Of a stretch of 64,000 bases of DNA, positions 4,381-60,519 are shown one piece after another. The notes below the pieces were generated by a model. It did not search any database. It saw only the letters and a list, made by a program, of their open reading frames with translations, and was not told the DNA's origin. Position 1 is the first letter of the stretch, and each line of letters starts with the position of its first letter. A program made the translations under genes and the position numbers. Source of the stretch: Mizuhopecten yessoensis (taxonomy: Eukaryota); assembly GCF_002113885.1 (NCBI RefSeq), contig NW_018408770.1, positions 776,458-840,457 on the forward strand, given 5' to 3'.

Positions 4381-5756
4381 TTAATTTGTGTCTAGCCTCT
4401 AACCAAAGTCTATGTATAATTAATTGTGTATACATTATTTCAAGGTAGCTCTTGTTAAAATGTCAAATTTAGTGTGTGAAGACAAAATAAAGAGCAGCTT
4501 AATAGCTACCTTAAGGAAATTGACATCTCAAAAATGAAATGTGTGTAAGGGTGAATGCTAATTTATACTTTTTACCTGACAATAACACAAATGAAGCTTG
4601 TTTCAGTTAAGCCACTTACAAAGTGAAAAAGCACTGACAGTAGGTACACTAACAAGCAATTGTGTGGTTTTAAAACATTTAACTGGTAGCCTGATTATGA
4701 AGAGTGCATCTGTCATACACGAGACCAGGTGTGACCTTCTATACATAAAGTAGATTAGAACTCATACAGACATATTCTGCATTACTTTCCCAGCAGGACT
4801 GACAAACAATTACCCATATACCATTACCCAGCAGACTGTCGGTCAGAGGTGTGTACACTTCTCAACGCCAAAGTGCTGGTGCCAGCAGCACCGGAAAACA
4901 AATACACAATCATGGACATTGCAAATGGTTGTCATGACAACTATAAATGTGTATGGAACCAAAAACCAATTGGACATTCGTTTTACAATTTTGGTTAGAA
5001 GTGCGGGTTCCGTGTAGTGTAGACAGTTATCTAATGTTATTGTTGCCAAGGAGACTCTATCATTTTTATAATTGTATTCATGAATTTGTTAGCAATCGGA
5101 GGAATAAAACCAATTTGTCAGTACAATTTAATTTACTCTCTTGATAATAGCACACGCCTGTATAGAACCATGCAACAACAACAAGCAAACAACCAATTAT
5201 GTCTGTCACAGAAGATTGACTGGTGTCCATGTCAGTTCCATAAACACTACCCTTCTACTAGCGTAGCCCAATTACTGCAAACAAAAATGGTCATGTTGAG
5301 GTCTTGCACAAGGATAAGAAACAGATGTTTGTCAAACCTAACCTAGATTCTTCAACATGTACGTTTCCCGTTAATACAGCCTTGTACAATGCTTAGCAAC
5401 AGAAAGCTTTACTTGTTGAACTAGAAAAAGTAATGACGGTACTTCTTGTATGGGTAAATTTCTCCATAAATTTAATAACACAACTTTGAATGACAATTTT
5501 TTCTTGCATGGCATAACTATGTCACAAATTCCATGCATGCTGTACTGTGGTCATATGAAGATGTTAGTCTTAAACAAGTATCTATTAAAATCAGTCAAGG
5601 GTATTTTCAATGATGTGGTTGGACGATGAAAAGACTCTTGACTCTATGAAAAATTCTTCAGGTCAAGAAAGTCTCTTTTAAAATGAAGAGGTGACATAGT
5701 TTATTTACCTGGGTATTTTATGCCTCCTTTTATCAACCTGGTGTGACGTCATTTTA

Positions 5757-6035
<279 letters not shown>

Positions 6036-6834
6036 TCAACATTCAGGGCACCAATAATTGTAAACTGAACCATTTTTCAATATACCTATATTCTATTTTC
6101 ATTAATCCAGAAAAAATAATTTAAAATCCTGAAAAAAGGGTAAAAATAACCTAGTAATTTATAAAAAAAATCATGATTAGCTGGATTAACTTTTCATGGT
6201 TTTATGTTGATGATATGACAATCCTATTCTCATATGATCTTTTGACCTTCAAAATAGGAAGGATCTTAACAGTAAACAAGAAAAGTACTGTACACACATC
6301 ATGGAATGGGCATTTTCATACAGGGGATAAAACTATAAATTGTATAAATAATAATTATTTCCATAGATAATTATGTAAGTGGAACCTTTTAATTTATGAC
6401 CTCATTAAATTGTTAACTTTATTTTTTAAATATGAAACAACTATCGTTCTTATCATGAACTAAAAAAAAACAACATTCGGAACAATCTACAATAACAATT
6501 TACTAGTCTTCTCAAAGTTTAACCTTTCAAAGGTAACATTTCTACCTTCTAGCTACTTTTTTAATTGATCTTCATTAATAATGAGTTCATTATACCATGA
6601 TTACAGATATTGGTTTGTGATTTTAAATGCTGTTGTGAGTGCCTCCAGACAGACAACCCTCGACAGATGGCCCTGTCAAAGGACAACATTCCATACAGAA
6701 ATCTTTCAAGTCACTGAGTCACAATGGGTTTCTTATGTAAAGGCAAAATCAGACGAGAAATCAACAAAAAAAGTTTTGTTATTATATACACTTTAGACTT
6801 CAATTCATGAGGGACTGGTTGAGCTCATGGTAAT

Positions 6835-8656
6835 GGACACAAACCAATACTGGTCCAGACAAGTCTCTGGACACAAACCAATACTGGTCCGGACTAGTAT
6901 CTGGACACAAACCAATACTGGTAAAGATCAGTCCCTGGACACAAACCAATACTAGTCCGGACTAGTAACTGGACATAAACCAAAACCGGTCCAGACCAGT
7001 ATCTGGACACACACCAATACTGGTCAAGACCTGTCTCTGAACACAAACCAATACTGGTCCAGACCAGTCTCAGGACACAAACCAATACTGGTCCAGACTA
7101 GTCTCTGGACACAAACCAATTCAGGTCCAGACTAGTCTCTGGACACAAACCAATACGGTTCCAGACCAGTCTCTGGACACAAACCTATACAGGTCCAGAC
7201 TAGTCTCTGGACACAAACCAATACAGGTCCAGACCTGGCTTGGGACACAAGCCAATACTGGGCCAGACAAGTCTCTGGACACAAACCAATGCTGGTCTAG
7301 ACCTGGCTCTGGACACAAACCAAAACTGGTCCAGACCAGTCTCGGGACACAAACCAAAACTGGTCCAGACTAGTCTCGGGACACAAACCACCAATACTGG
7401 TCCAGACCAGTCTCTGGACACAAACCACCAATACTGGTCCAGACCTGTCTCTGGACACAAGCCAATACAGGTCCAGACCAGTCTCGAGACACAAACCAAT
7501 ACTGGTCCAGACCAGTCTGTGGACACAAACCAGTACTGGTCCAGATGAGTCTCTGGACACAAATCAATACTGGTCCAGACCTGGCTCGGGACATAAGCCA
7601 ATACTGGGCCAGACAAGTCTCTGGACACAAACCAATGCTAGTCCAGACCTGGCTCTGGACACAAACCAATACTGGTCCAGACCAGTCTTGGGACACAAAC
7701 CAATACTGGTCCAGACTAGTCTCTGGACACAAACCAATACTTGTCCAGACCTGGCTCGGGACACAAGCCAATACTGGGCCAGACAAGTCTCTGGACACAA
7801 ACCAATGCTGGTCTAGACCTGGCTCTGACAAACCAAAACTGGTCCAGACCAGTCTCGGGACACAAACCAATACTGGTCCAGACTAGTCTCTGGACACAAA
7901 CCAATACAGGTCCAGACCAGTCTCTGGACACAAACTAATACTGGTCCAGACCAGTCTCTGGACACAAGCAAATACTGGTCTAGACTATTCTCTGGGCACA
8001 AACCAATACTGGTCCAGACCTGGCTTGGGACACAAGCAAATACTTGACCAGACCAGTCTCAGGACACAAACCAATGCTGGTCCAGACCTGGCTCTGGACA
8101 CAAACCAATACTGGTCCAGACTAGTCTCTGGACACAAATCAATAATGTTCCAGATGAGTCTCTGGACACAAATCAATACAGTTCCAGACCAGTCTCTGAC
8201 ACAAACCAATAATGGTCCAGACCTGGCTCGTGACACAAGCCAATACTGGGCCAGACAAGTCTCGGGACACAAACCTATACTGGTCCACACCAGTCTCTGG
8301 ACACAAATCAATACTGTTCTAGACCAGTCTCTGGACACAAACCAATACTAGTCAAGACCTGGCTCGGGACACAAGCCAATACTGGGCTAGACAAATCTCT
8401 GGACACAAACCAATGCTGGTCTAGACCTGGCTCTGGACACAAACCAATACTGGTCCAGACCAGTCTCTGGACACAAGCAAATACTGGTCCAGACTATTCT
8501 CTGGACACAAACCAATACTGGTCCAGACCTGGCTTTGGACACAAGCCAATACTTGGCCAGACCAGTCTCAGGACACAAACCAATACTGGTCCAGATCTAG
8601 ACCAGTCTCTGGACACAAACAAATACTGGTCCAGATCAGTCTCTGGACACAAACCA
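6835..8656. repeat. 34-bp minisatellite, ~53 copies, intronic
   Basis: Consensus GGACACAAACCAATACTGGTCCAGACCAGTCTCT; explains all repetitive ORFs between 6.9 and 8.7 kb. Confidence 0.97.
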
Positions 8657-11008
8657 GGAACAGGACTGTATAAACATGATTCCAATATATAGTTTACAAG
8701 TTAAAACTGTGACTGAGCAGAGAAGATATACCTCCTCAAACAGTTATTACCTAGATGCAGTTCATATTAAAACTGACTGAATAGGGAACAGTTGTTACCC
8801 AGTTGTAGTTTATAGTAATACCCTGACTTTACCGTATGAAGAGATTACATGTCGTCATACAGGCTTATTTCCCATGAAGTTTAAAGTGAAACTGTGACAG
8901 AACGAAGAGAGTATGCCTGCTGAAACAGTGGGGTGACACAGGTTATTCAGGTGTAATAGTAAACCTAGGGAACTCCTCAAACAGTCCTGTTATCAAGGTG
9001 AAGTTTACAGTAAAACCCTGACCGTGACTGTACAAAGATGGTATTCCTTCTCAAACTGGGTTGTTATCAAACCACATCTGGCCAAGAAAAAGCTATCATC
9101 TTTAAATTTGAATCTCGTTGAGGAGCTCCGGCTATAGACTGACCTAGATATAGTCGACTATATAAGGGATAAGACATTATATAAATTCCTACCTTGTTTG
9201 CTGGTTGCACAGATTAATTGTCTGTGTCAAAAATGTGTGGATCTTTATATCTTCATAACGGAGTTTTGACAATCTTAAATTTATCAATATCTTTGTCATT
9301 GTTCCCCAAGGTAAACAGATCATATTTCCTGGGCTATTATTGGTGTTCTAGATAATTATGAACATACCCATTATTTTCCTATTTTGATTTTTTCGTTACA
9401 ATTCAGCGTTAATTCTAGATGTAAACATGCCCAATTTTTTCCTATATTGGATTTTCATTTCAGTACATGTATTGGGTAAATTCTGGATATGAACAAGATT
9501 TTTCATTTTTTCTATTTAATCACTGTCTTTTAGATTGTGGTGACGTAATCATTTCTACAACCTAAAATAGATATTGATCAGTAATGGACCCGATATCATA
9601 CACAAACACAAACAATGTTAATCTCAAAGGAAGGATGAATAACGATACAAGGCAAGGAAACTGCATCAGTATTGATGAGGCATGAAAACTTCAACCATTA
9701 ACTGAGCTAAATAAATATAAAGTTACAATTCAAAAATTCAAACACACATGAAGATGTAATTATAAGGATACCAGATTCATACAACAGTATATAACAAAAT
9801 ATCAAACAATAATAACGTTTTTATGTGTTATTGACCTGAAATGTATATTTCTAGCACATGTTCTCCAGACATCTAGCACTTATCTCTGGATACTGTATCT
9901 GAAGCAGCTGAATAATTTAATTACGCTAGTGTTATGATCCAGGTGTGATATAATGGGGTCGGTTCACTGACAGTGACAGACGTACATCTATAACAGATTC
10001 AGATACCACTTCTTCTTGAAAGATAGAATGATGTCTTATAATTTTATTTGAAGCTCTAAACATTTTTCTCATGCCATCACTAATTCACCTTAAGTGATAT
10101 TTTAAAATGTTAAATGCATTAAGATTAATTTCACTACATTATATAACCTCATTATATGTTCCACTATACAAAATGTATAATATAGTGATTTTTATATTTG
10201 TAAACTTCTGGACAAATATTGGAGACCAGAAATAATGGAGCAAAATGTTGGTTGCATGCACATGGCACCTACAATGACCTCTGATGGTGGTAGTCTCAGC
10301 ATTATCGCAAGGGGATACGTGTCTTCATTATCACTTATACCAATTCCCATTCATGGTCTTCATTATGTTTGTGATACAATAGCCAGAGAATCAAGAGGTC
10401 ATGAAGATGTGAATAAAGGTGATTTGTCATGAAGCCACAAATCAAATCCATCAGGCCAAAGTTCATGTATCAGAGGTCAAGGTGATGTGATAAAGGTCAA
10501 CTGTTATAAGATGATAATTAACTTTAATTAATTAACTAGAAGTTAACAAGATTTCATTCAAAGATAAGCTTCTCAAACATCTACATTGTATTTCTGGTAG
10601 TAATTATTTATCAATACCATTTGTCACTGAAAGCAATATTAGAGATTCGAAGGAGGGGGGGAGGGGGGGGGGGAGAGAAGGAGGGTTGGTGGGTGGTGGC
10701 GGTGGCTGCAATAATTAACAAACGAAGAGTGATTTGTACCCTTTTGAATGGAAGTACACTGTTATCTCACACATGTAATATAGGTCACAGAGCCACTTAG
10801 AAGAGACAAGGAATTGTACCACACAACCAGGGCTAATTGCCGTGACCCACAATTAACGATACAGACAGTTCCAATGGTGTCCTGAACCACTCCCAGGAAC
10901 TTTCTAGTGATTCTACTGTAGATCTACACTCCTACACAACTTAGTCAAAACATATGTGTGGCATTCCACAACTACTTATGAACTTGGATGACTTTCATCT
11001 TGGTTTAA

Positions 11009-11091: not shown

Positions 11092-11664
11092 TAAACCCAA
11101 ACACTAGGTCTACATTACTGATCTTCTCTTCCAGATATGTGATCTCAAAGTTGCTGATAAAACTGGTATCTATATACATCCAAATGCACAGTCCTAACTT
11201 CTATATCAATTCCTGTTACTTTCTCAAATATTCTAAAACCATGGTCATTGACATATTTTTTTTATCTTTTTAAACTTCAGTAGAACCTATTTGTGTTAAG
11301 CTCTTAAGGCCATGACGTAACTTCTTATGCACAGCCATGGAGTGACTTTGTGTGCAGGATATTCAATCAAAATTCACTGACAAAAAATGTTAATGTACCA
11401 AAACACAGCTTTGAAATGAAGGAGTAATTCAATTTACTTGTAAATTGAATACCTAATTAAGCAGATATTAAATTCAGTGTAAACAGTCACAATTTAAGAT
11501 GCCACTTGGAACATCTGTAAGAAATGAATACCCCTTGTCCCTTAACCTTTGGACCCAGAAATACAAACTCGTCTGAGGTATTGTCATATTTGATCTTTGT
11601 ATAAATTCTGATGAAATTAAAGTCTGTTGAGAAATGAAATCAACAGAGAAGTTACAATGAATTG

Positions 11665-12615
11665 CAAGGTGATTGGACAGGCCGGGATAGACAAGGTGAT
11701 TGGACAGGCCAGGATAGACAAGTTGATTGGACAGGCCGGTATAGACAAGGTGATTGGACAGGCCGGGATAGACATGGTGATTGGACAGACCGGGATAGAC
11801 AAGGTGACTGGACAGGCCGGGATAGACAAGGTGATTGGACAGGCCGGGATAGACAAGTTGATTGGACAGGCCAGTATAGATATGGTGACTGGACAGGCCG
11901 GTATAGACAAGGTGATTGGACAGGCCGGGATAGACATGGTGATTGGACAGACCGGGATAGACAAGGTGACTGGACAGGCCGGGATAGACAAGGTGATTGG
12001 ACAGGCCGGGATAGACAAGGTGATTGGACAGGCCGGGATAGACAAGTTGATTGGACAGGCCAGTATAGATATGGTGACTGGACAGGCCGGTATAGACAAG
12101 GTGATTGGACAGGCCGGTATAGACAAGGTGATTGGACAGGCCGGTATAGACAAGGTGATTGGACAGGCCGGGATAGACAAGGTGATTGGACAGGCCGGTA
12201 TAGACAAGTTGATTGGACAGGCCGGTATAGACAAGTTGATTGGACAGGCCGGTATAGACAAGGTGACTGGACAGGCCGGGATAGACAAGGTGACTGGACT
12301 GGCTGGGATAGACATGGTGACTGGACAGGCCGGGATAGACAAGGTGACTGGACAGGCTGGGATAGACATGGTGATTGGACAGACCGGGATAGACATGGTG
12401 ACTGGACAGGCCGTGATAGACATGGTGACTGGATGGGCCGGGATAGACAAGGTGACTGGACAGGCCGGGATAGACAAGGTGACTGGATAGGCCGGGATAG
12501 ACAAGGTGATTGGACAGGCCGGGATAGACATGGTAATTGGACAGGCCAGGATAGACATGGTGATTGGACAGGCCGAGATAGACATGGTGATTGGACAGGC
12601 CGAGACAGACATGGG
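11665..12615. repeat. 27-bp minisatellite, ~35 copies
   Basis: Consensus CAAGGTGATTGGACAGGCCGGGATAGA; unit length is a multiple of 3 and stop-free in several frames, which produces the VIGQAGIDK / SIPACPITL ORFs. Confidence 0.97.
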
Positions 12616-13982
12616 TAACACTGTATGCCCCAAGTGCCCCCCCCCCCCCTTCCCCATTTTTATTGGGGGAGGGGGCATAATGAAGATTTTAAAAATGAAC
12701 CTTTAAAAAAACATTGAACTCGTAACATATATCAGAACTGGCTATCCAACAATGTTTCCAATGCACATACATACGTAAATATTCAGTCTAGGATAGTAAC
12801 CCAAGTCTGCTTTTCATTAGGCTGACTACACAGAATGGTGGTAATGTATGCATAGAAAGTACAATCTAATCAGTAATCATGTGCTTTTTATCAATACACT
12901 TCCTTATTTAGCTTAGTTTCTCTTGTTTTCTTCACCAAACACGGTCTCTACATGGCCTGCAGCTTGCATGCTAAACTGCCATGAAAACTCCGAGTACAGA
13001 CTCAAACGCCAAAAATCAATCGTTTACCATCTTCTTTGGGTTTATTCCCTTAATCTTGTCTCTAAAAGGCTTCTTGATCGATGGGTGGTGCTGCTGTATA
13101 GCTCGAGTAAGAAATCTAGTGTTTTCAGTGTCAGAAACCGGTAATGTAAATGTTTTTACCATATAAAGTTGTGTCAGCATCTTCTATGGTACTGAAAGGA
13201 ACTTTCGACATTTCCATTGATTTTGACTTACTTGATTTGATCCGACTGTAAGCTTCTGACAAGTGATAAGATAACAATTGACACAAGTATATATAAAACT
13301 CTACCTGAATCTTTGTACAAAAAGGTTATATATATATCTGTAACAAACTTTTATCGTTATGTTCAATCACATACGATAGGCTTTTTACTGGTCTATGTTC
13401 AGCCTTATTTAATAGATATTGTCTTCTCTAGACTTTGTTTCACAATTTACCAAATGACCCATTGGCAATATAGAGAATTTCATTTGAATGCTGTAATTTA
13501 CTGTGCACTTGTAATGTGAACTTTTCTTGTTGCCAGATCCCTAATATTACATTATGTAAAAATATATATTATGAACTGCATATTTGTAAATAAAATATTG
13601 TTTAAACCAATGTGAAATTCCATCAACTCATGTCGAAGTTGATGCCACTACAACAAATTTGAAGATAACCTGGTAGCACAGAAACAAACTACAGGTAGGA
13701 GTTCCACCATAAACAGGGTATTAAAATAATCTTGAAATCAAAGGAAAGTTTAGTATTTGATATGAGTGCAGAATAAGAACTAAAATCTTACCCTTGATGA
13801 TGTTATAGTTATATAATTAGCCAACATTGACCTTTGCTGATCCTATAAATATACCTAGCCAACCTTGAACTTTGCTAATTCTATAAATATACCTACCTGT
13901 GGTGACCATATAGCCAACATTGACCTCATGATGATCCTATAAAGCTTGTTGCCAACATTGACCTTTGGTGACCCTATATATC

Positions 13983-14455
13983 TAGCCAGCATTGCTATTG
14001 CTAACATTGACCTTGGATGACCCTATAAAGTTACCTAGCCAGCATTGCTTATTGCTAACATTGACCTTTGGTAACCCTATAAAGTTATCTAGCCAACATT
14101 GCTTATTGCTAACATTGACCATTGGTAACCCTATGACATTACTTAGCAAGCATCGCTTATTGGTAGCATTGACCTTTGGTAACACTATAAAGTTATCTAG
14201 CCAGCATTGCTTATTGCTAACATTGACCATTGGTAACCCTATGACATTACTTAGCAAGCATCGCTTATTGGTAGCATTGACCTTTGGTAACACTATAAAG
14301 TTATCTAGCCAGCATTGCTTATTGCTAACATTGACCTTGGATGACCCTATAAAGTTATCTAGCCAGCATTGCTTATTGCTAACATTGACCTTTGGTGACC
14401 CTATAAAGTTATCTAGCCAACATTGCTTATTGTTAACATTGACCTCTGATGACCC
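13983..14455. repeat. 54-bp minisatellite, ~9 copies
   Basis: TAGCCAGCATTGCTTATTGCTAACATTGACCTTTGGTAACCCTATAAAGTTATC; 18-aa periodicity in the overlapping ORFs. Confidence 0.93.
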
Positions 14456-14497
14456 CTACAATGTATATAGCTGGCAAACTTTGATGTTTGATGACCA

Positions 14498-14765
14498 TAG
14501 CTAGCCAACATTGGCCTTGATGATTCAACACACTATAGCTATAGCTAGCCAACATTGGCCTTGATGATTCAACACACTATAGATATAGCTAGCCAACATT
14601 GGCCTGATGATTCAACACACTTTAGCTATAGCAAGCCAACATTGGCCTGATGATTCAACACACTTAGCTATAGCAAGCCAACATTGGCCTTGATGATTCA
14701 ACACACTATAGATATAGCTAGCCAACATTGGCCTTGATGATTCAACACACTATAGCTATAGCTAG
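14498..14765. repeat. ~44-bp minisatellite, ~6 copies
   Basis: TAGCTAGCCAACATTGGCCTTGATGATTCAACACACTATAGCTA repeated. Confidence 0.9.
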
Positions 14766-21587: not shown

Positions 21588-22564
21588 TTAAAAACTTCTT
21601 TATTGGTGTTAAGGTAGAAACAAGACATTAAATGTATAATTATGAATTATGATCAGTATCTTTCTGATGATTTAAATTCTCAAGATTAGCTTTAGCTTGT
21701 AAGCTGTTCTTGCATCAATCGTCACACTCTGGATATTATCCATTAACAAATCTGACCGAAGTGTAACTTAGTCCCATCATAATGTGATATGATACAACCC
21801 TAGGCCACACGTGCACCGAGGGCGGTAACAGGAAGTGGGTCCTCGTAGGAGATGACACCTTCCAGGATGGTATGTCAAGTAACCACTCATGACCACCGAG
21901 GACTGAATGCAATGTCGACTTCCTGAGCAGAATTGCATTACAGAGGCATTTTATAGTACATAGAAGCAGGCTACTTATCGACCACACTTGTGTATCACTA
22001 ATTAACGTTTCTAAGGTTATCAAGGGCCTAACAACTGGTTGTCAAGGATTTACTAGCATATCTTTGCAACTGAGAAACCATTCATTAAATTTTATAAATT
22101 AATAATCAATATTGTATGATTTAGGAATGAAGCAATAGGTCAAAACTAAGGTAAATATATGTGTATCATCATGATCATGACCTTGGTAATCAAATGTAAA
22201 AATGAAAACTCCTAAAAATTGTATTTGTTATTGTTCTACCAGACTAGAAGCAATATTTGATTTTTGATTGCTCTGTATAACTTAAAGAAATTCATTATCA
22301 TGCCTGAGTACAGTGCAAATATTGCAACAAATCTAAGCAGCAATATCAACAAAGACTAGCTGCAATTCTTAAATTTAAAATGGACATTAAGATTTTAAAT
22401 TTTAGCTACAAAATGGGTCTTATGACCAATGCCCCTCCTTATCTCTGCTTTTGGATAGATTTTATCAACAGGTTATACATGTATGTACACTGATGCTTGT
22501 CTGGAACTGCCTGCAAGTTTAAAACAAAACAATGATTAAACACTGATAAAAGAATAGAGCCTAC

Positions 22565-22728
22565 CTGAGTACAGGGTTTACGAAGGTTGACGCACAATCC
22601 ATCAGGGTCTGTACTATAGTGATCTGTAAGATCTGATAACGTTCTAAATGTAACTCGTCTCGCAATGAAGAAGCCACCCTCATCCAATTGTCTTATTCTA
22701 TAGTGCTTGACAGTGTCTCCATCACGTA
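22565..22728 (-). CDS. Src42A: Src42A/FRK-like tyrosine kinase, coding exon 3 (SH2 C-terminal half)
   Basis: VRDGDTVKHYRIRQLDEGGFFIARRVTFRTLSDLTDHYSTDPDGLCVNLRKPCTQ; acceptor TTTCAG, donor GTAGGC; 164 nt, phase consistent with exons 2 and 4. Confidence 0.97.
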
Positions 22729-23099
22729 CTGAAAGAAAATATACATCTAGTTAAAAACATCAATTAAAAAGTTACACGTGCACATAAAATGTAGGGTAGG
22801 GCATGTTGAAATGTCTCAACGAAAATGTACAGCACATATTACTCCAATTGATAACTATTACTTCTAGATAGAAACTACAGGTCAATGTTTTCTTACTAAT
22901 ATAGTTGTGATTCTTACCCTCATATTGGATGCTTATATTAAACTTCCCAAGAAAAACAATGCATCCTGTTTATCTAATGATTTCCCAAATTAACATCATC
23001 CTGCATGTCAAGCCAAACACTTTCAGGACAACAAACAAAAAAAGGTAATCAGACTACACCATAAATACTTAAAATCGAAGTGTGGTGCATGTCAAGGGA

Positions 23100-23375: not shown

Positions 23376-23976
23376 CTGAAAGAGAAAGGGATGCAAAATG
23401 TGTGTTAAAAATGACAAAGAAGGAAAGACATGCTTTCAAATTGGTACATAAAACTACAATATCCCTGTACTTCTTGATCAACACAAATACCTGCAAATAC
23501 ATTTGAAATTGATTTCGTTGCATATTAAAGCATCAGTCAATTTCTTTGATTTTCATTATATTTCGATGGTATTTTAACTATTTTTGTGAAATATCATTTT
23601 CAAAGACTTACCAGTTTCGTTAACAAATTGCAAAAACAGTGTATTTTTGCCTTTAGTATATATCTCTAACCATTTTAGTATTGAAAAATGGCATCTAGTG
23701 ACTTGGCAAAATGTTGCAATACAATTATTTTAGGTTTAAGTCAATACACAGCCCTATTATATATCTTTCATATACAATCCTGTACAGAAAGTTGGTATCA
23801 TTGACATCAATTGTTTACAGCACACATATAAAATACAATGAAACAAAAATGCCTTGGAGTGATTTGCTGTTAAATACTATACACTAAGTTTCGTCTTACA
23901 TTGTGTATTCCATCGATGTGTAATTGCAATGTGTACAACATATTTCAAGATAATATGGATGCATTTTTTTACTTAC

Positions 23977-24380
23977 GGTTCCGATTCCAAACTCTTCAAC
24001 TTAGCCACATAATTAGAAGGTATATATCCCTCGTTTTGTGTTGTTTTCGACCGAGCATACCACCAGTCACCTTGTGTATCGTTTATAATTTCTAAATGTT
24101 CCCCTTTCCGGAAGCTGAGGTCCTCCGCAGTCCTAGCATCGTAGTCATACAATGCTACGAACACTTTGGTAGTTGTCGGAGTGGTCTCACTCGTAGGCTC
24201 CGGCTGTGGGGTGGAAGATATGGACACTATGGGGCTTGTTGAGGGGGGCGGGGTGGACAATGCCACGGGAATGGGGACAGTGGGTGTCCCATTTGACAGT
24301 TCCTGTGCAGCCTTGTGTTGGGGAGTCGTCTGAGTACCAGGGACATTGCTTGTGTTGTCTCTCCGTAAACAATTCCCCAT
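23977..24380 (-). CDS. Src42A: Src42A/FRK-like tyrosine kinase, first coding exon (SH4, unique region, SH3)
   Basis: ATG at 24380; MGNC N-terminus (Gly2 myristoylation, Cys4 candidate palmitoylation), Pro/Ser/Thr-rich unique region, SH3 [35 protein letters not shown]...EGYIPSNYV; donor GTAAGT at 23976-23971, phase 2. The assembled SH3-SH2-linker sequence closely matches Drosophila Src42A / vertebrate FRK as I recall them. Confidence 0.97.
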
Positions 24381-24729
24381 CACGCCAGTTTTTAATCTTA
24401 ATCCACAGAATGAAACAGGATCTACCCACCTAAATCTCTGGTTTGGCTACATCACTCCCTTATACCTATTTTAACAGGAATATCGTTAATCCAGATCGGT
24501 TTTCTTCTCATCATCTTGAGTGATTACCAGACATGATGAAAACCGTACAACACCCAAGACAGTACTACGCATTGAAAAGTAGTTCTATTTATATTGATAA
24601 ATAACATCCATTTCTTAACCTGAACATCATTATGTGATTATTCATTTCCACTCAGTTACAAGTGTTTAACTAGCTAATACTAGATCACGTACATTGTGAT
24701 AACATAAATATTTCCATTACAATTTATTC

Positions 24730-29120: not shown

Positions 29121-29817
29121 AAGAAACTGATATAAATGTATTCAGGCTTTAAGTTTTAAAAGACAAATATTCACAGTTTTATCAAATAAATTCTCAGGAG
29201 TCGATATTTTGTGATCAAATTTTTAATTTGTTAGCCTAACTAATTCTGTGATTCGAAATTTCAGAGTCAGTCATTCAATATAAATTAAATAGTGCAATTA
29301 TTTCATTTATTTAAGCAAATCTTAACAACGACCCTAGTTTGAACCCACTAACAATATTTATTCTACCTACCAGTCTCTTACGATAAGCATGTCAGAGTTA
29401 TCTCCCATGTAACACTGAAAAAACTCCATGGAGTTTTTTCCACTTTGCATTTAACAAATATCCGCAGAAAAGTTATTTTTTACACAACTGCAGAGGGATT
29501 ATAAAGCTGGCATTGAAATTGCATGCATTTTTGGCAACTTGACACTACATTGCACTTAATTATTATTAATGCTTCACAGATTGTTACCATAATTTGTATG
29601 AAAGGAGTTAGAGTACAGTAACCCATGGAGCCAGAGGGGTAAGGAATACCAATGGGCCAATAAAGGGTAAACTTAAGCTATTTACTTTTCGAAAATATAC
29701 TCCTTAAAGCCAGGATTGTTGGCATATTTAGTCTGAATTATCCCTATAGGGCAAGGTGATCATGTGTTGTATTTACATTGCAAGAAATCCTACTCATAAT
29801 TGAATGGAATTATATCT

Positions 29818-30375
29818 CAATCTGATTAAAATCATCTCTTACATGGCTCCGCCTGAACATCTGAGTGTGCCGCAGTCAGGGTCACGTTCAGGTGACCTTT
29901 ATATTTATAAATACTCATTAAATTTTGACCAATCAGAAACCCTCTTTCGAAAGGGCGCTCAGAGTTGTAACAAATATGGCGGACATTGATGAAAATGATG
30001 CAAACGTTCTGAAGTTATTTGAGATTGATCGTCTGAAACCCAAACAGAAAAAGATATTCAAAGCTTTTTTAGAGAAGAAAGACTGTATGGCGGTGTTGCC
30101 AACGCAATTATTACCCAATGGGTTCGTTTTCCTTGGCATCGTAGAAACGTCAGTTCCCACCGCCATATTTGTTTTGGAAAAACTAATCTGTTCGATACCC
30201 TCGCTATTTATCTATCAACCATGATATTTCGATTCGCTGGCAAACTTTTGCCAGCGCACCTATGATTGGTTCATCTAAAGGTCACTTGAACGTGACCCTG
30301 ACCGCGGCACATTCAGATGTTCAGGCATAGTACGACGTTAACGAAGCCATGTAACATATGATTTTAATCAGATTG
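29818..30375. mobile_element. Non-autonomous DNA transposon, AcademH-like internal deletion derivative
   Basis: TIRs of ~83-100 bp starting CAATCTGATTAAAATCAT / ending ATGATTTTAATCAGATTG; perfect 9-bp TSD ATTATATCT (29809-29817, 30376-30384); contains a RecQ-like helicase N-terminus and a convergent ORF start. Confidence 0.85.
29976..30104 (+). pseudogene. Truncated RecQ-family (SF2) helicase N-terminus carried by the transposon
   Basis: MADIDENDANVLKLFEIDRLKPKQKKIFKAFLEKKDCMAVLPT matches RecQ motif 0 (LxxFxxxxL/FK/RPxQxxxIxxxLxxKD) and the start of motif I (AVLPT-G-x-GKS), breaking off exactly before the Walker A glycines. Confidence 0.75.
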
Positions 30376-31078
30376 ATTATATCTGTATTTGGTTTGAAAC
30401 ATCACTTGTAGGGCAAAGTGACTACATTTTCTGATAAATAAAGTTGATGCAACCGCTAGGGATCAAGAGGTAGGGCCAAAATACACCTGATTTTGGGTGT
30501 ACAACTTAATATACTTCAAATGGTTGATATCATACTACCATATAATAAGATACACACATACATGTATAGGCATGGAGAAACAAATATATACCAGGATTGG
30601 CTTTTAGGTCCTGCCCCAACCCTGGTTCCATCATCTCTTGTTCATCACATGGAAGAATTTGAGATTTCCACCCTGTTACCATATTTATAGCTTGGCATGA
30701 AGAAATGAACACAATCATGCTTCCAAGGATTTGATTATTGGTAGTCCTGCATAGGGTCATAACATGGAAATCGTAAGCATTCATACCCCATAAGCCATAC
30801 ATACAGATTTCAACAAATTTATCATACAGTGCTATGAAGCATTTTTTGTTCCCTGCTTTGTTGCATAAAAGAAAAGGGTAGTCCCCTTGGCAATTTTTTT
30901 CTGTAAAAGTGTATTAAAAAACACAGCCATCATGTTACTCAGGTACAATCCAGTACAATTCACAATCCAGTACAGTATATGTGTCAAGGGACATAACTCC
31001 TTTTTGCTTGAACAGGTCTGTTACCAACTTTTTCCCTTAACAAAATTAGGAAACATTCTCAAAAGAATCACTGAATCA

Positions 31079-31365
31079 TTTAAGCTCACCTGCCCGAAGA
31101 GTAAGTGAGCTTATAAGCTTATGTCAGGGTGCCGCTTCGGAATCCGTCTGTTGTCCTCCGTCAACTTTTCCTTTAAACAACTTCTTCTGAAGAAGAACCA
31201 AAAAGCATAGAATCATACAATAATATTTGGCTGGTAGTTTTAACAGATGGAGCCGACAATGTTTACGGTGAAACATTATTTAGTATAGTATAATATTCAA
31301 TGAATATTTTGCTATGACTGCTCAAACATTCAGGTGAGCGATACAGGTCCTCTAGGGCTCTTGTT
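31079..31365 (+). mobile_element. Short HINE-like element (internal array collapsed)
   Basis: AGCTCACCTG...GTGAGCTTAT 5' end, degenerate CGTC tract, 3' CAGGTGAGCGATACAGGTCCTCTAGGGCTCTTGTT; body matches the 5' and 3' ends of the 48942-50175 copy. Confidence 0.82.
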
Positions 31366-32203
31366 ACATCAGGCTTTAATTTCTAGTAACACTCATGGCT
31401 TCAGACTCTAGTAATATTACAGTAGTGCTACATTATAAGCCCACACAAAATGATATGCATATATATCTGTTCAGTGTTACTTCAAGAAAAAAATGGGTAT
31501 TCATTTATTTTCATTTCTCTTAAAGAGTTCATTGTGTCTCTGTAGTAAAACTACTGACATTACTTTTTCTTGTTTAAAATATAACCCCTAGTGTTGGCTG
31601 TGAAAATCAATACAGTTTTGCCATGTCTATCTGTCACACAGTGACATCATATATTTAACAGCTTCATTTGTTTTTTCATGAAACTTCAACAGAGAATCAG
31701 TTCAAAGGTAGCTTGAATGAGTAAGCGTTTCAGCATTTTGTACCCAAGGTCAAGGTCAGTGTAACTCTGAATCGAAAAAAAAATGATGTCATCTCTATGG
31801 TACCTTTTTTTGTAGTCGCATTTCCATGAAATTTCACGTAGAGACTAAGTATGAAGGTAACTTTAAGGCGGTTGTGTTTCAGAAATTTGCACCAAAGGCC
31901 AGGGACACTGTTTCTTTAAGTAGAAAACATCTTTGTGCAGTGACTTTATCTCTCTAGTGCCTTTTCAGATCGCCTTGACACTTCATATGAATGTAACTTC
32001 AAAGATATCATGTGTAAGCATTTTGCACCAGAGGTCAAGGTCACAATTTCTATAAATACTAAAAAAAATATCTTTCCATCACTCCAATGCCTAACCTTCA
32101 TTTGCGATTGGATTTCCATGAAAGTTCATACAAGGGTTAAGTGCCAGGATAGCTTGAACAATTTCTCATTTCAGTTTTCATTAAAGGTCAAGGACACTGT
32201 TAG

Positions 32204-41010: not shown

Positions 41011-41377
41011 GTCTTATATTCTCTTACCGCAAATGTATTTTAACATCTCCTTCAATGTACTGCCAAACCCCTTTATAGGGACAAAATATCGCTGGAAATA
41101 TGGTGGCAGTATTACATATTTTACTGTAGATGTACATGGTATGAACAAAGAATTGAAATCAAGATTTCTCGGTTCTTAAAAGGAATTTCAATATCAATGG
41201 TGTTTTGAAGTTAGCTATGAATTACTGTACCAGGTGTATTACATGTTTACCTTTCTGATGGTCTTGTTTTTTCAAAATATCTTAAAATCTACAGTATTTC
41301 ATTAACATACATTTTCCAAGCAAATAGGTGGTTAAAAAGGTACCTGTATTTGAAGGCTTTAGTGAAATCTAAGGTAA

Positions 41378-41700
41378 ATGTAATATGTATACCCGGTATA
41401 AAATATCTATACCCGGTATGTAATATGTATACCCGGTATATAATATGTATACCAGGTATGTAATATGTATACCCGGTATGTAATATGTAAATCCAATATG
41501 TAATATGTATACCCGGTATGTAATATGTATACTTGGTATGAAATATGTATACCCAGTATGTAATATGTATAACCCGGTATGTAATATGTATACCCGGTAT
41601 GTAATATGTATACCCGGTATGTAATATGTATACACGGTATGTAATATGGATACCCGGTATGTAATATGGATACCCGGTATGTCATATGTATACCCAGTAT
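41378..41700. repeat. 20-bp minisatellite, ~16 copies
   Basis: TAATATGTATACCCGGTATG repeated. Confidence 0.95.
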
Positions 41701-42166
41701 GCACACGTAGGTTGCATTTCACTAGAAGTGAAGAAAAACATCCAATAGTTACTTCATTACTAAATACATCCATAGAAAGATTTGTTTAGTGAAGACATCC
41801 TGTAGAAAGACTGTATATTGCACAGACACAAGTTTAACCCCTGCCTTACATCACAGTAAATTCCCCTGCTGCAGTTGAGTGTGACTGGTCGTCCTACAAG
41901 TGTCGGTACTGGTACAGGTAAACATTGGTCTGGTGGCGGTTTGGTAGAGGGGGTGCCAGGAAACGAACATCATCACTCCAAGGTGGTTTATATTTGTAGA
42001 CTTTGCCAAGAAATTTCACTTGCAAGTAGAGCTGGGAGTCTTACAAGGCGTAAAGCTGATGTAATTATTCAGGTGTAAAACACTGGTACTAGGCAAGGTA
42101 GAAGTTCAACCTGTAGGTAAAAATTATCAATTTATCATATTTTTCATGGGAATAAGACAATAAAAC

Positions 42167-57353: not shown

Positions 57354-58411
57354 ACCTTATTTCTTTTATCTTATCCAGGATAACTATTTTCTCCTGGGTA
57401 AAAAATACAGGTGTTAGAATGAATTAGTTCCAGGTGGGCAGTCAGTTTTTAAGAAGTTTTCATTGTAGATGAAATAACGGTATGTACACACTCTGTATAA
57501 CATAAAATAAATTATGGCTACTCTGTTTCATATTTTAGTGAGATTATGATAGCACTAATAGATGGAATATCATGTACTGTTGAGAGCTAAAATAATTTGA
57601 CACTAAATTAAGTACAAACCGATATACAGGATTTTGCTGATATATCATTTTGGGTCATGAGGTACTTTTGAACTTGAGTTACTTGGTAGTTACACTGCTA
57701 ATATTTTTGCTGTACTAATGGTCTTGGTGCCACTGCAGCTGTGTTATTAAATAGATACAGAGAAAAAAGTTAATGTAATATATAGCCCTATAACCTTTTA
57801 CTTAAGGATACTGACCTGTCGCGGGAGTAACCTATATCAATAATGCCTGAGGGATAAACAGTTGTTAGACCTTTTAGGATATTTACTATTAATTGTTATT
57901 TATTCTAATAAAAAATAATTTAGATAGAACATGTTTAGATCTGATAGTAAGTTCAAACATGGGATATTTTCATATTGTGTGTAGCTAAGCAGAATTTAAT
58001 ACTTCTAGTAAACAGGAACAATTTGTGTATAATTATACGAAATTAAAATGTTGCTACCAAATATATACACATTTGATACTTTAATTGACTTTTAGTATTT
58101 GCCAAACAAAACATTTTTATTCTTGCAGATGGCATGTTTAGGTTGCAACATTTCCATTACACGTTTATAGAGAAATTAATACAAGAAAATTGGCTGGTTT
58201 AACATGTGGACTTGTTATTGTAAGTATTGTATTACATTATATATTAGAGATTGGTAAGATCTTGCTACCAAAGCCCCAGGTGATGGTACACCCAGGGTGT
58301 CTTGTTTCAATCCATGCTTGAATTTCTGAATTAAGTTACAATTTCTGTTTTTATTTGAAGTATTCTTGGTTAGGTACATAGACTTTAACTTCTGTCTTGT
58401 TTACAGCCCCA

Positions 58412-58955
58412 TGTAATTTCTGCCTTGTTAGGGCCGTAAGGCCTGGTGTCACTGATCTATTCTTTGGTAGGTTCATAGGCTGTAATTTCTGCCTTGTAAG
58501 GGCCGTACGGCCTGGTGTCACTGATCTATTCTTGGGTAGGTTCGTAGGCTGTAATTTCTGCCTTGTTAGGGCTGTACGGCCTGGTGTCATTGATCTATTC
58601 TTGGGTAGGTTCGTAGGCTGTAATTTCTGACTTGTAAGGGCCGTACGGCCTGGTGTCACTGTCCTGTTCCTGGGTAGCTATAGGTTCGTAGGCTGTAATT
58701 TCTGCCTTGTAATTTGGGTCCCTCGGCTTGGTGTCACTGATCTATTCTTGGGTAGGTATGTAGGCTGTTGTTTCTGCCTTGTTAGGGCCGTACGGCCTGG
58801 TGTCACTGTCCTGTTCCTGGGTAGCTATAGGTTCGTAGGCTGTAATTTCTGCCTTGTAATTTGGGTCCCTCGGCTTGGTGTCACTGATTTATTCTTGGGT
58901 AGGTATGTAGGCTGTTGTTTCTGTCTTGTTAGGCCCCTTCAGCCTGGTGTCATTG
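58412..58955. repeat. ~69-bp minisatellite, ~7 copies
   Basis: TGTAATTTCTGCCTTGTTAGGGCCGTACGGCCTGGTGTCACTGATCTATTCTTGGGTAGGTTCGTAGGC; several units contain the 12-bp palindrome GGCCGTACGGCC. Confidence 0.93.
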
Positions 58956-60519
58956 GCCAACAGGATCCTGATTATATCTTTATACCTGTATACTATGATA
59001 GGAATCTAGTGTGGGAGACAGATCTCGGAGATAAAGATTCACCCAAACTGGGGTCATACTGGTACTTTGAAACAATATGTCTTATTGTGGCCATTTAAAG
59101 TCCCAAAGTATGATATAAAAAATAAAAATATAATTGTAAACACCCCTAAAAAATAAAAAAAATAAACAAAAAGATATGTATTGTGTTACAATACTTGAAT
59201 TAATGTGTGTTTTCTACCTGATTTGTCCTGTTATATGGCTGTTCAGGATGTTAGACGAAGCTGCATTGTTCGGTTTGATCCTGGATGACTCCGATAACCT
59301 GGGAGGCCTGTGTGGGCACTATCTTCTGCACCCAATTAACAATGTAACCAGGCTTGTAATCGACGCCTCAGATAATTCTAAACAAGATAGACACATTATT
59401 TCTGGATGCAAAAAAACAGGATTTTGATTAATTGTGTATGAATACATGATTGAATACAGGATATAATTATGAAACACTCCCTTATGGAGTAATCTCCAAA
59501 AACATTGCAGGATAAGTTTCCATATAATGCCATTAATAAATTTGTATTAGAATGTCTAGTGTTTATATATGATCAATGAATTGATTTTCTGTTTGAAGAT
59601 AAGAGTCCTTACGCACATTACTGTAGCGTGGTTGACCTTGAAGATTGTCAAGTTTGACCTTGTAACGGTGTAACTGCCTTGCAGTAGTAATGAACCCGGC
59701 TTTAGAGGAACAGAAACTTGAAGCTTAATTTACTAACCCAGTGCTAACAAGGGTCGATGTGTGACGCAGGGATGGTGGAGTACCAATGTCAGATCCAGGG
59801 AATGACCCTCGGTATTGTGGGGATAATAAGACAAAGGTGGTTTAACTTGCTGGATCTCAGCAGTTATTTCTGATTTTTTTTTTATAACATCCATTTAGAA
59901 GAAGAGTTAATTTGTTATGTGGAAATGATTGGATGGAAATGTGTTACAGAGTTATACTGAAAGGTCACTTAGGTCACAAGGTCATTGAGATCATTAAGGT
60001 CACTGGGTTAACTGTGTAAAGAAAGTTCACCATGATGAAGCCAGCTGCCAATAGGAATATGTCATAATTTCTGTGTTGGGCTTGGTGTATGGAGTTAAGT
60101 TCTTAATATATTAAAGTGATATTAGATTTAATTGACACATACAATTCATCTCAATACCATCATATGGCGTAGCTTATTAGTAATTTAAGGAAAACCTTAG
60201 TGCAAGTTCATGGTGGTCTATTGAAATCGTTTACTTATCTCTGGAATATCCATACCAGACTATGTATTATGAACTTTGGTGTTAGTATGGGAGGTGGGGA
60301 CATTATGACTTGTCTGTGAAATTTAAATGGTAAAAATATTTAAGGCTCAGTGTATTATGAACTTGGGTGTGTGTGTGGGAGGGAGGTATTGTAACATGTT
60401 TGTGAAAATGGTAAAGATTAATATGTAGCTCGGTGTATAATGAATTTGCGTATGTGTGGAAGTTGTGACTTGTCTGAGAAAATGATAAAGTTAAATATTA
60501 GAGCCGATCAGGATTTGAA

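Follow-up and report, generated by a model that had tools for sequence, protein, structure and literature searches.

A 558-bp element of the scallop Mizuhopecten yessoensis, which runs CAATCTG...CAGATTG at positions 29818–30375 of the analysed window (64,000 nucleotides of contig NW_018408770.1, positions 776,458 to 840,457), is a multi-copy, non-coding miniature inverted-repeat element (MITE) or deletion derivative. Very probably it arose by internal deletion from a two-gene transposon, likely of AcademH, in which a RecQ-like helicase gene faced a DUF6589 gene; the predicted DDE transposase of this parent is likely to have spread the derivative in trans.

The positions of its features are collected in Table 1. 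The first-pass annotation, made from the letters of the window alone, had described a 558-bp element with a perfect 9-bp target-site duplication (TSD), CCAAT boxes, a shared start context and two start codons, and all of these were recovered at the positions it gave; the lengths of about 83 and 100 bp that it assigned to the terminal inverted repeats (TIRs) were corrected to 87 and 103 bp, and its indel of about 16 bp stood, the two window TIRs differing by a single 16-bp indel. In contigs from four other DNA runs, loose ends coincide precisely with both element boundaries, 29818 and 30375. Of the palindromes that had been noted near each end, the right one was retained and the left one (CTTTCGAAAG) was ruled out as a feature of the family: it was read in only 2 of 56 copies, and 38 of the 56 as well as both long copies described below read CTTTCAAAAG. 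The start context AAATATGGCGG accompanies the CCAAT boxes at both gene starts; we take it to be YY1-site-like and, together with these boxes, to resemble a TATA-less housekeeping-type promoter. A similar layout is present in the second family treated below.

Table 1. Features of the 558-bp element and its flanks, in window coordinates.
Feature	Position	Strand	Remarks
Target-site duplication, left	29809–29817		ATTATATCT; read in the window
Helicase-side TIR, short form, 87 bp	29818–29904	+	Short form shared by long copies C76734 and C4871 at this end
CCAAT box 5' of helicase start	29929–29933	+	CCAAT in 49/56 copies; likely promoter remnant, putative function
Inverted 14-mer AACAAATATGGCGG, the start contexts	29969–29982 and 30160–30173	+/-	ATGs at 29976 (+) and 30166 (-)
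Helicase gene start, first ~43 codons, up to LPT of Walker A	29976–30103	+	91% DNA identity to C76734
DUF6589 (predicted DDE transposase) gene start, first ~21 codons	30101–30166	-	93% DNA identity to C4871
Deletion junction, 3-bp microhomology	30101–30103		TAC in both parent genes; AAC in the window copy, a private change
22-bp palindrome, transposase promoter region	30235–30256		Exact in 26/56 copies; near-identical in C4871
CCAAT box 5' of transposase start (ATTGG on plus)	30265–30269	-	51/56 copies; likely promoter remnant, putative function
Transposase-side TIR, long form, 103 bp, with 16-bp extra segment	30273–30375	-	Long form shared by C4871 at this end
Target-site duplication, right	30376–30384		ATTATATCT; read in the window

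A search of the scallop's own genome (988 Mb) returned 715 candidates, and the 40 that were scored were nearly all full length, the other copies being 87–94% identical to the window copy. Two exact 25-base end patterns had 11 and 172 matches genome-wide, so that 183 copies is a floor, and a junction-side pattern had 134 exact matches. For the census, 80 loci were examined, of which 12 had no recognisable end and 12 duplicated loci already counted, leaving 56 distinct copies with two ends; the loci were mostly best matches, which biases the census towards well-preserved copies. The two-ended copies measured 496–564 bp, mostly 558 bp, and the junction sequence TTGCCTACGCAATTATT was read exactly in 37 of the 56. 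TSDs of 9 bp flanked 38 copies (30 exact, 8 with one mismatch) and TSDs of 10 bp flanked 16 (10 exact, 6 with one mismatch), with none at the remaining two; the AcademH-like duplication of 9–10 bp that had been expected across copies was thus found at 54 of the 56. By comparison, a flanking repeat of 9 or 10 bp with at most one mismatch occurred by chance in 427 of 62,570 pairs of window positions 558 bp apart (0.7%). The nine-base targets (n = 38) lean towards AT and have no fixed base. The copies are short, uniform, bounded by TIRs, non-coding and numerous, and they trace to a longer coding element, the features by which a MITE is recognised. A 1334-aa open frame at C75982 proved spurious: it came from the Ns of an assembly gap that follows a miniature copy of the ordinary kind.

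The plus-strand reading frame had been interpreted as a RecQ fragment ending at AVLPT. The 43-aa peptide by itself gave no Pfam match and matched RecQ in the PDB only at E = 0.96, and being uninformative alone it owes its RecQ identity to the parent copies. When it was extended by one glycine codon, the sole match in the genome was C76734; there a stretch 91% identical to the left-hand 286 bp of the element leads into a helicase gene of three exons. GT-AG splicing of this gene yields 472 codons with no internal stop, and AVLPT continues to GYGKS, as had been anticipated for long copies with a full DEAH-type RecQ-like helicase; the motifs LPTGYGKS, DEFH, PSAT, GMGVD and QEKGRVGRDG are followed by a C-terminal cysteine cluster (CxxC). 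The exons match the Pfam families DEAD (8.9e-12) and Helicase_C (1e-17), their best PDB matches are RecQ, WRN and RECQ1, and the exon that continues LPTGYGKS matches RecQ at 2e-10, so C76734 encodes a superfamily-2 RecQ-like helicase, as AcademH elements do. A second long copy (C4871, 7.86 kb) holds element bases 1–184 (92%) and 285–549 (93%). Both ends and both gene starts of the miniature derive from a parent of at least 7.9 kb, and the deletion removed more than 7 kb of it. The two frames had been said to meet near 30104 at a deletion junction; since TAC stands at the breakpoint in both parent genes, the joint, at 30101–30103, is a 3-bp microhomology.

The last helicase exon of C76734 is identical to P0032, which is named 'ATP-dependent DNA helicase RecS [Mizuhopecten yessoensis]', and a transposon helicase therefore stands in public databases under a host-gene name. 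The database model of P0032 starts at an internal methionine and omits Walker A (the gene lies at L064:186-2692 of C76734). Many mollusc entries called RecS, WRN-like or RecQ-like may likewise be transposon genes. In the same long copy, a duplicated segment between the two genes contains an inserted fragment with NMDGIPLF and FVCDAPARAF (L064:3450-4030), which has no Pfam match and is presumably EnSpm/CACTA-like.

Facing the helicase gene in C76734, in convergent orientation, is a multi-exon DUF6589 gene (Pfam 7.3e-16), in keeping with the expected opposite-strand transposase gene. The minus-strand peptide of the window is its N-terminus: C4871 continues it as PLGNNCVLCGFSF (NNCVLCGFSF), the oyster DUF6589 protein P0017 opens with this motif and shares 13 of 21 residues with the window peptide, and the first 47 DUF6589 residues of the parent match P0017 at E = 2e-12. 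A search among longer proteins found 31 relatives, all DUF6589 and, where named, all molluscan, and 30 of the 31 were aligned. For the closest homologue (P0001, 67% identical over the last exon) an AlphaFold model with a pLDDT of 83 was examined. Foldseek returned no match to it at E ≤ 0.001, the best being Hermes at 0.013; a wider structural search placed P-element transposase first (Z 9.2, rmsd 5.7, 331 aligned), followed by Hermes (7.5), ISCth4 (7.3), integrases, Tn5 and RAG1, these Z values being middling and belonging to the fold of the homologue rather than to that of the scallop's own broken protein. In P0001, D206 is at the end of a strand, D356 comes after one and E665/E668 are helical; each is conserved among 28–30 of the 30 sequences. 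Such an arrangement is consistent with a DDE triad interrupted by a large insertion, the residues of which are assigned putatively. The motifs GDNWD, GDRLTDE and ALDEY also occur in C76734, and an ExxH motif (EDFH, 388-391) follows the second D. From the P0001 model and the conserved residues, the DUF6589 gene is predicted to encode a cut-and-paste transposase of the DDE/D (RNase H-like) type found in AcademH, and the reading of DUF6589 as a DDE transposase in molluscs gains support. Copies of the outer 20–33 bp of the TIR are present in introns of the parent transposase gene (L065:338-370 and L065:478-497), as well as in C4844 and in a related family at C3823; they are possibly additional transposase-binding or autoregulatory sites.

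Twenty loci with a DUF6589 match were inspected, and 15 of them have a helicase match within 13 kb, 13 in convergent orientation and 2 on the same strand. These paired loci span 24–100% protein identity, and the pairing of helicase and DUF6589 is old. In the limpet, a DUF6589 protein (P0011) and a helicase (P0043) carry adjacent locus tags. When long copies bounded by TIRs and a TSD were sought in 10 genome regions, the only one found was C76720:584505-591095, which belongs to a different, distant family; it has TIRs of its own (CAACTTCGCGAG..., 84 bp, 98.8% identical), its 9-bp TSD is perfect, and CCAAT plus ATGGC are arranged inside each end as in the window element; the C-terminal half of the transposase is missing from it. 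This half is kept in C736:900287-908923 (8.6 kb, 96–99% identical), which did not satisfy the TIR and TSD filter of that search, but has the TIRs together with an assembly gap and insertions and is the best candidate for a near-intact element of the C736/C76720 family. Judged by its sequence identities, this second family appears younger than that of the window element, and it offers a better starting point for asking what the helicase does.

The AcademH lineage of Academ was reportedly described by Kojima in 2020 (Mob DNA 11:15); that set may already include the present family, which is probably an ordinary new member. An AcademHP subgroup carries an additional PHD finger, for which no match was found in the part of the parent exons that was scanned. 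AcademH is characterised by a DDE-type transposase and a DEAD/Helicase_C (RecQ-like) helicase (PMC10045372, PMC10799480). The former source further gives AcademH TSDs as 9 or 10 bp and links their difference from the 3–4 bp of AcademX to the carriage of a helicase or a nuclease (PMC10045372), and another reports Academ to be abundant in bivalves, with 100 curated consensus elements of a mean length of 5.6 kb (PMC10294476). The family described here combines terminal inverted repeats (87/103 bp) with such TSDs and both genes. Membership in AcademH is therefore likely, as judged from architecture and TSD length.

It is very unlikely that the parent belonged to another helicase-carrying DDE lineage, such as KolobokH, the Kolobok-1_CCri type or an unnamed sister of Academ. 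Kolobok elements duplicate TTAA, whereas the TSDs counted here are of varied sequence, are not TTAA and have the length of those of AcademH. KolobokH does encode a RecQ helicase, Kolobok-1_CCri has one on the complementary strand, and the ExxH motif of our predicted transposase is reminiscent of the C/DxxH signature described for Kolobok, hAT, P, MuDR and Dada; in the same source, however, KolobokH is reported only from fungi (PMC9587614).

Assignment to AcademH being preferred, the state of the family can be considered. The derivative had been called fairly recent and its autonomous parent had been thought possibly still present; long copies do exist, and those in the assembly are broken. C76734 has a frameshift in a middle transposase exon, several insertions and a duplicated segment, and no right end within 40 kb downstream; in C4871 there are stops, frameshifts and internal deletions, and the terminus is clipped (the terminal ~9 bp are gone on the transposase side); only fragments are left at C4844 and C2959. 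Each of the four long copies examined is thus damaged, and an intact parent with both TIRs and a TSD was not found in the assembly; a genome search with the first transposase exon gave only C4871, C76734, one 60-bp piece and short repeat matches. The miniature copies differ from their consensus by a mean of 3.0–3.5% (range 0.8–5.2%, window copy 4.5%), which bears out a recent origin only in part, none of the 56 being identical to another. With the long copies broken and the miniatures about 3% from the consensus, the burst appears to be over, and the family looks extinct in this assembly.

Continued activity, driven by an intact parent missing from the assembly, is very unlikely. The assembly does consist of 82,659 contigs with gaps, the helicase frame of C76734 is intact, and the related second family is young in the same genome, as seen in its TIRs and copies. 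Against this, the closest pair among the 56 copies is 2.3% apart, and DNA depth over most of the parent interior was only about 1–4 times single-copy in two other runs (bins of 12–112 versus about 12). In four other DNA runs, examined for the proposed empty-site alleles, flank contigs ran into the element at both ends and no empty site appeared among the 15 joints listed (there are 57 more), such contigs showing presence and not absence. In two RNA runs (19% of each read), neither helicase exon 2 nor the coding portion of the final transposase exon was covered, and at helicase exon 3 there was a trace of 0.25x, at its far end and in one run only; this is weak evidence that the parent genes are silent.

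Capture of the 5' part of a host RecQ gene by a Pack-MULE-like miniature is an extremely improbable origin for the element: MULEs also have 9–10-bp TSDs and long TIRs, the parent helicase does bear a host-gene name (P0032), and ISCth4, which we take to have IS256/Mutator affinity, is among the fold matches of P0001, but capture is refuted by the start of that supposed host gene 158 bp inside the element's own TIR and by the conserved pairing with DUF6589 at 15 of 20 loci, including the separate C76720 family, from which the helicase belongs to the element. The adjacent limpet locus tags point the same way, no MULE Pfam domain was found in the exons scanned, and both gene fragments map to genes within the element's own TIRs; neither a MULE transposase without helicase nor a host RecQ origin, two of the outcomes that the first-pass annotation had set against its own reading, was encountered.

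The deletion derivative also occurs in two forms whose ends are exchanged. The parent-type arrangement, seen in the window copy as well as the long copies, combines a short helicase end with a transposase end that has the 16-bp segment. Among the 56 copies, 45 were swapped and 9 parent-type, one had two long ends and one damaged copy two short ends; exact matches genome-wide (172 swapped, 11 parent-type) make the swapped form about 15 times commoner. The forms cannot be told apart by their interiors (mean distances 6.6%, 5.8% and 6.3%), and it is the outer ~46 bp of the ends that have been exchanged between them. Of the sequence markers, those at element positions 19 and 32 follow the tips and a G/A marker at position 47 follows the interior, which places the exchange within about 14 identical bases; in effect, the interior has been inverted between the tips. 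That the swap made a better substrate for the Academ transposase, and hence the 15:1 excess, is a doubtful proposition, and a founder effect explains the counts equally well. If it were true, Academ would need two different ends, since nearly every copy has one long and one short tip, and the end-swapped family would provide a natural experiment on how the Academ superfamily recognises its ends. A literature search for a published case of TIR swapping gave none relevant by title, which is not proof of absence.

The history of the family may be pictured as follows. The internal deletion, and probably the end swap as well, would have arisen through template switching or microhomology joining while the gap that excision had left was being repaired. 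The predicted transposase of the parent would have bound the retained TIRs in trans and excised the element, which would then have inserted through a 9–10-bp staggered cut with no clear target sequence. The helicase would likely have contributed by unwinding DNA at the ends, at the target or in the donor gap. The derivative multiplied to at least about 180 copies, a burst that appears to have ended.

In the window, the element lies ~5.4 kb upstream of the first coding exon of a likely Src-family kinase gene that starts MGNCL, with SH2 and SH3 exons at 22442–22750 and 23976–24446 on the minus strand. Tandem-repeat arrays with long spurious frames occupy ~7040–8690, 11470–12700, 13980–14500, 41290–41790 and 58350–59100. 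A very high-copy repeat, judged by read depth, starts at ~31060–31400 and extends beyond; tandem-unit repeats resembling it are inserted in C76734 (L064 ~6070-8750, L065 ~4470-5420).

The significance of these results is modest: an AcademH-type family is documented with a clean TSD count (38 + 16 of 56), and a minimal mobile unit of 558 bp is defined as a possible donor for a transposition assay, the role of the helicase being the main question about this group.

Compared with known systems, the family resembles AcademH in its DDE-type transposase with a RecQ-like helicase, its 9- or 10-bp TSDs, its animal host and its low-copy long elements, and differs in that its member in the window is non-autonomous, 558 bp long and one of hundreds of like copies, which come in two end-swapped forms. 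KolobokH and Kolobok-1_CCri share the combination of DDE transposase and RecQ helicase, on opposite strands in Kolobok-1_CCri, but they are set apart by the varied 9–10-bp TSD and, for KolobokH, by reports from fungi only (PMC9587614). Like Pack-MULEs, the element has long TIRs, a 9–10-bp TSD and internal gene fragments, yet these fragments are of its own genes and not host exons. The window element has both TIRs, a short and uniform length, a microhomology joint and a copy number far above that of its parent. MITEs and Ds-type internal-deletion derivatives generally share these traits. In contrast to them, it retains the promoter and the start codon of each of two convergent genes, so that the parent can be read directly from the window element.
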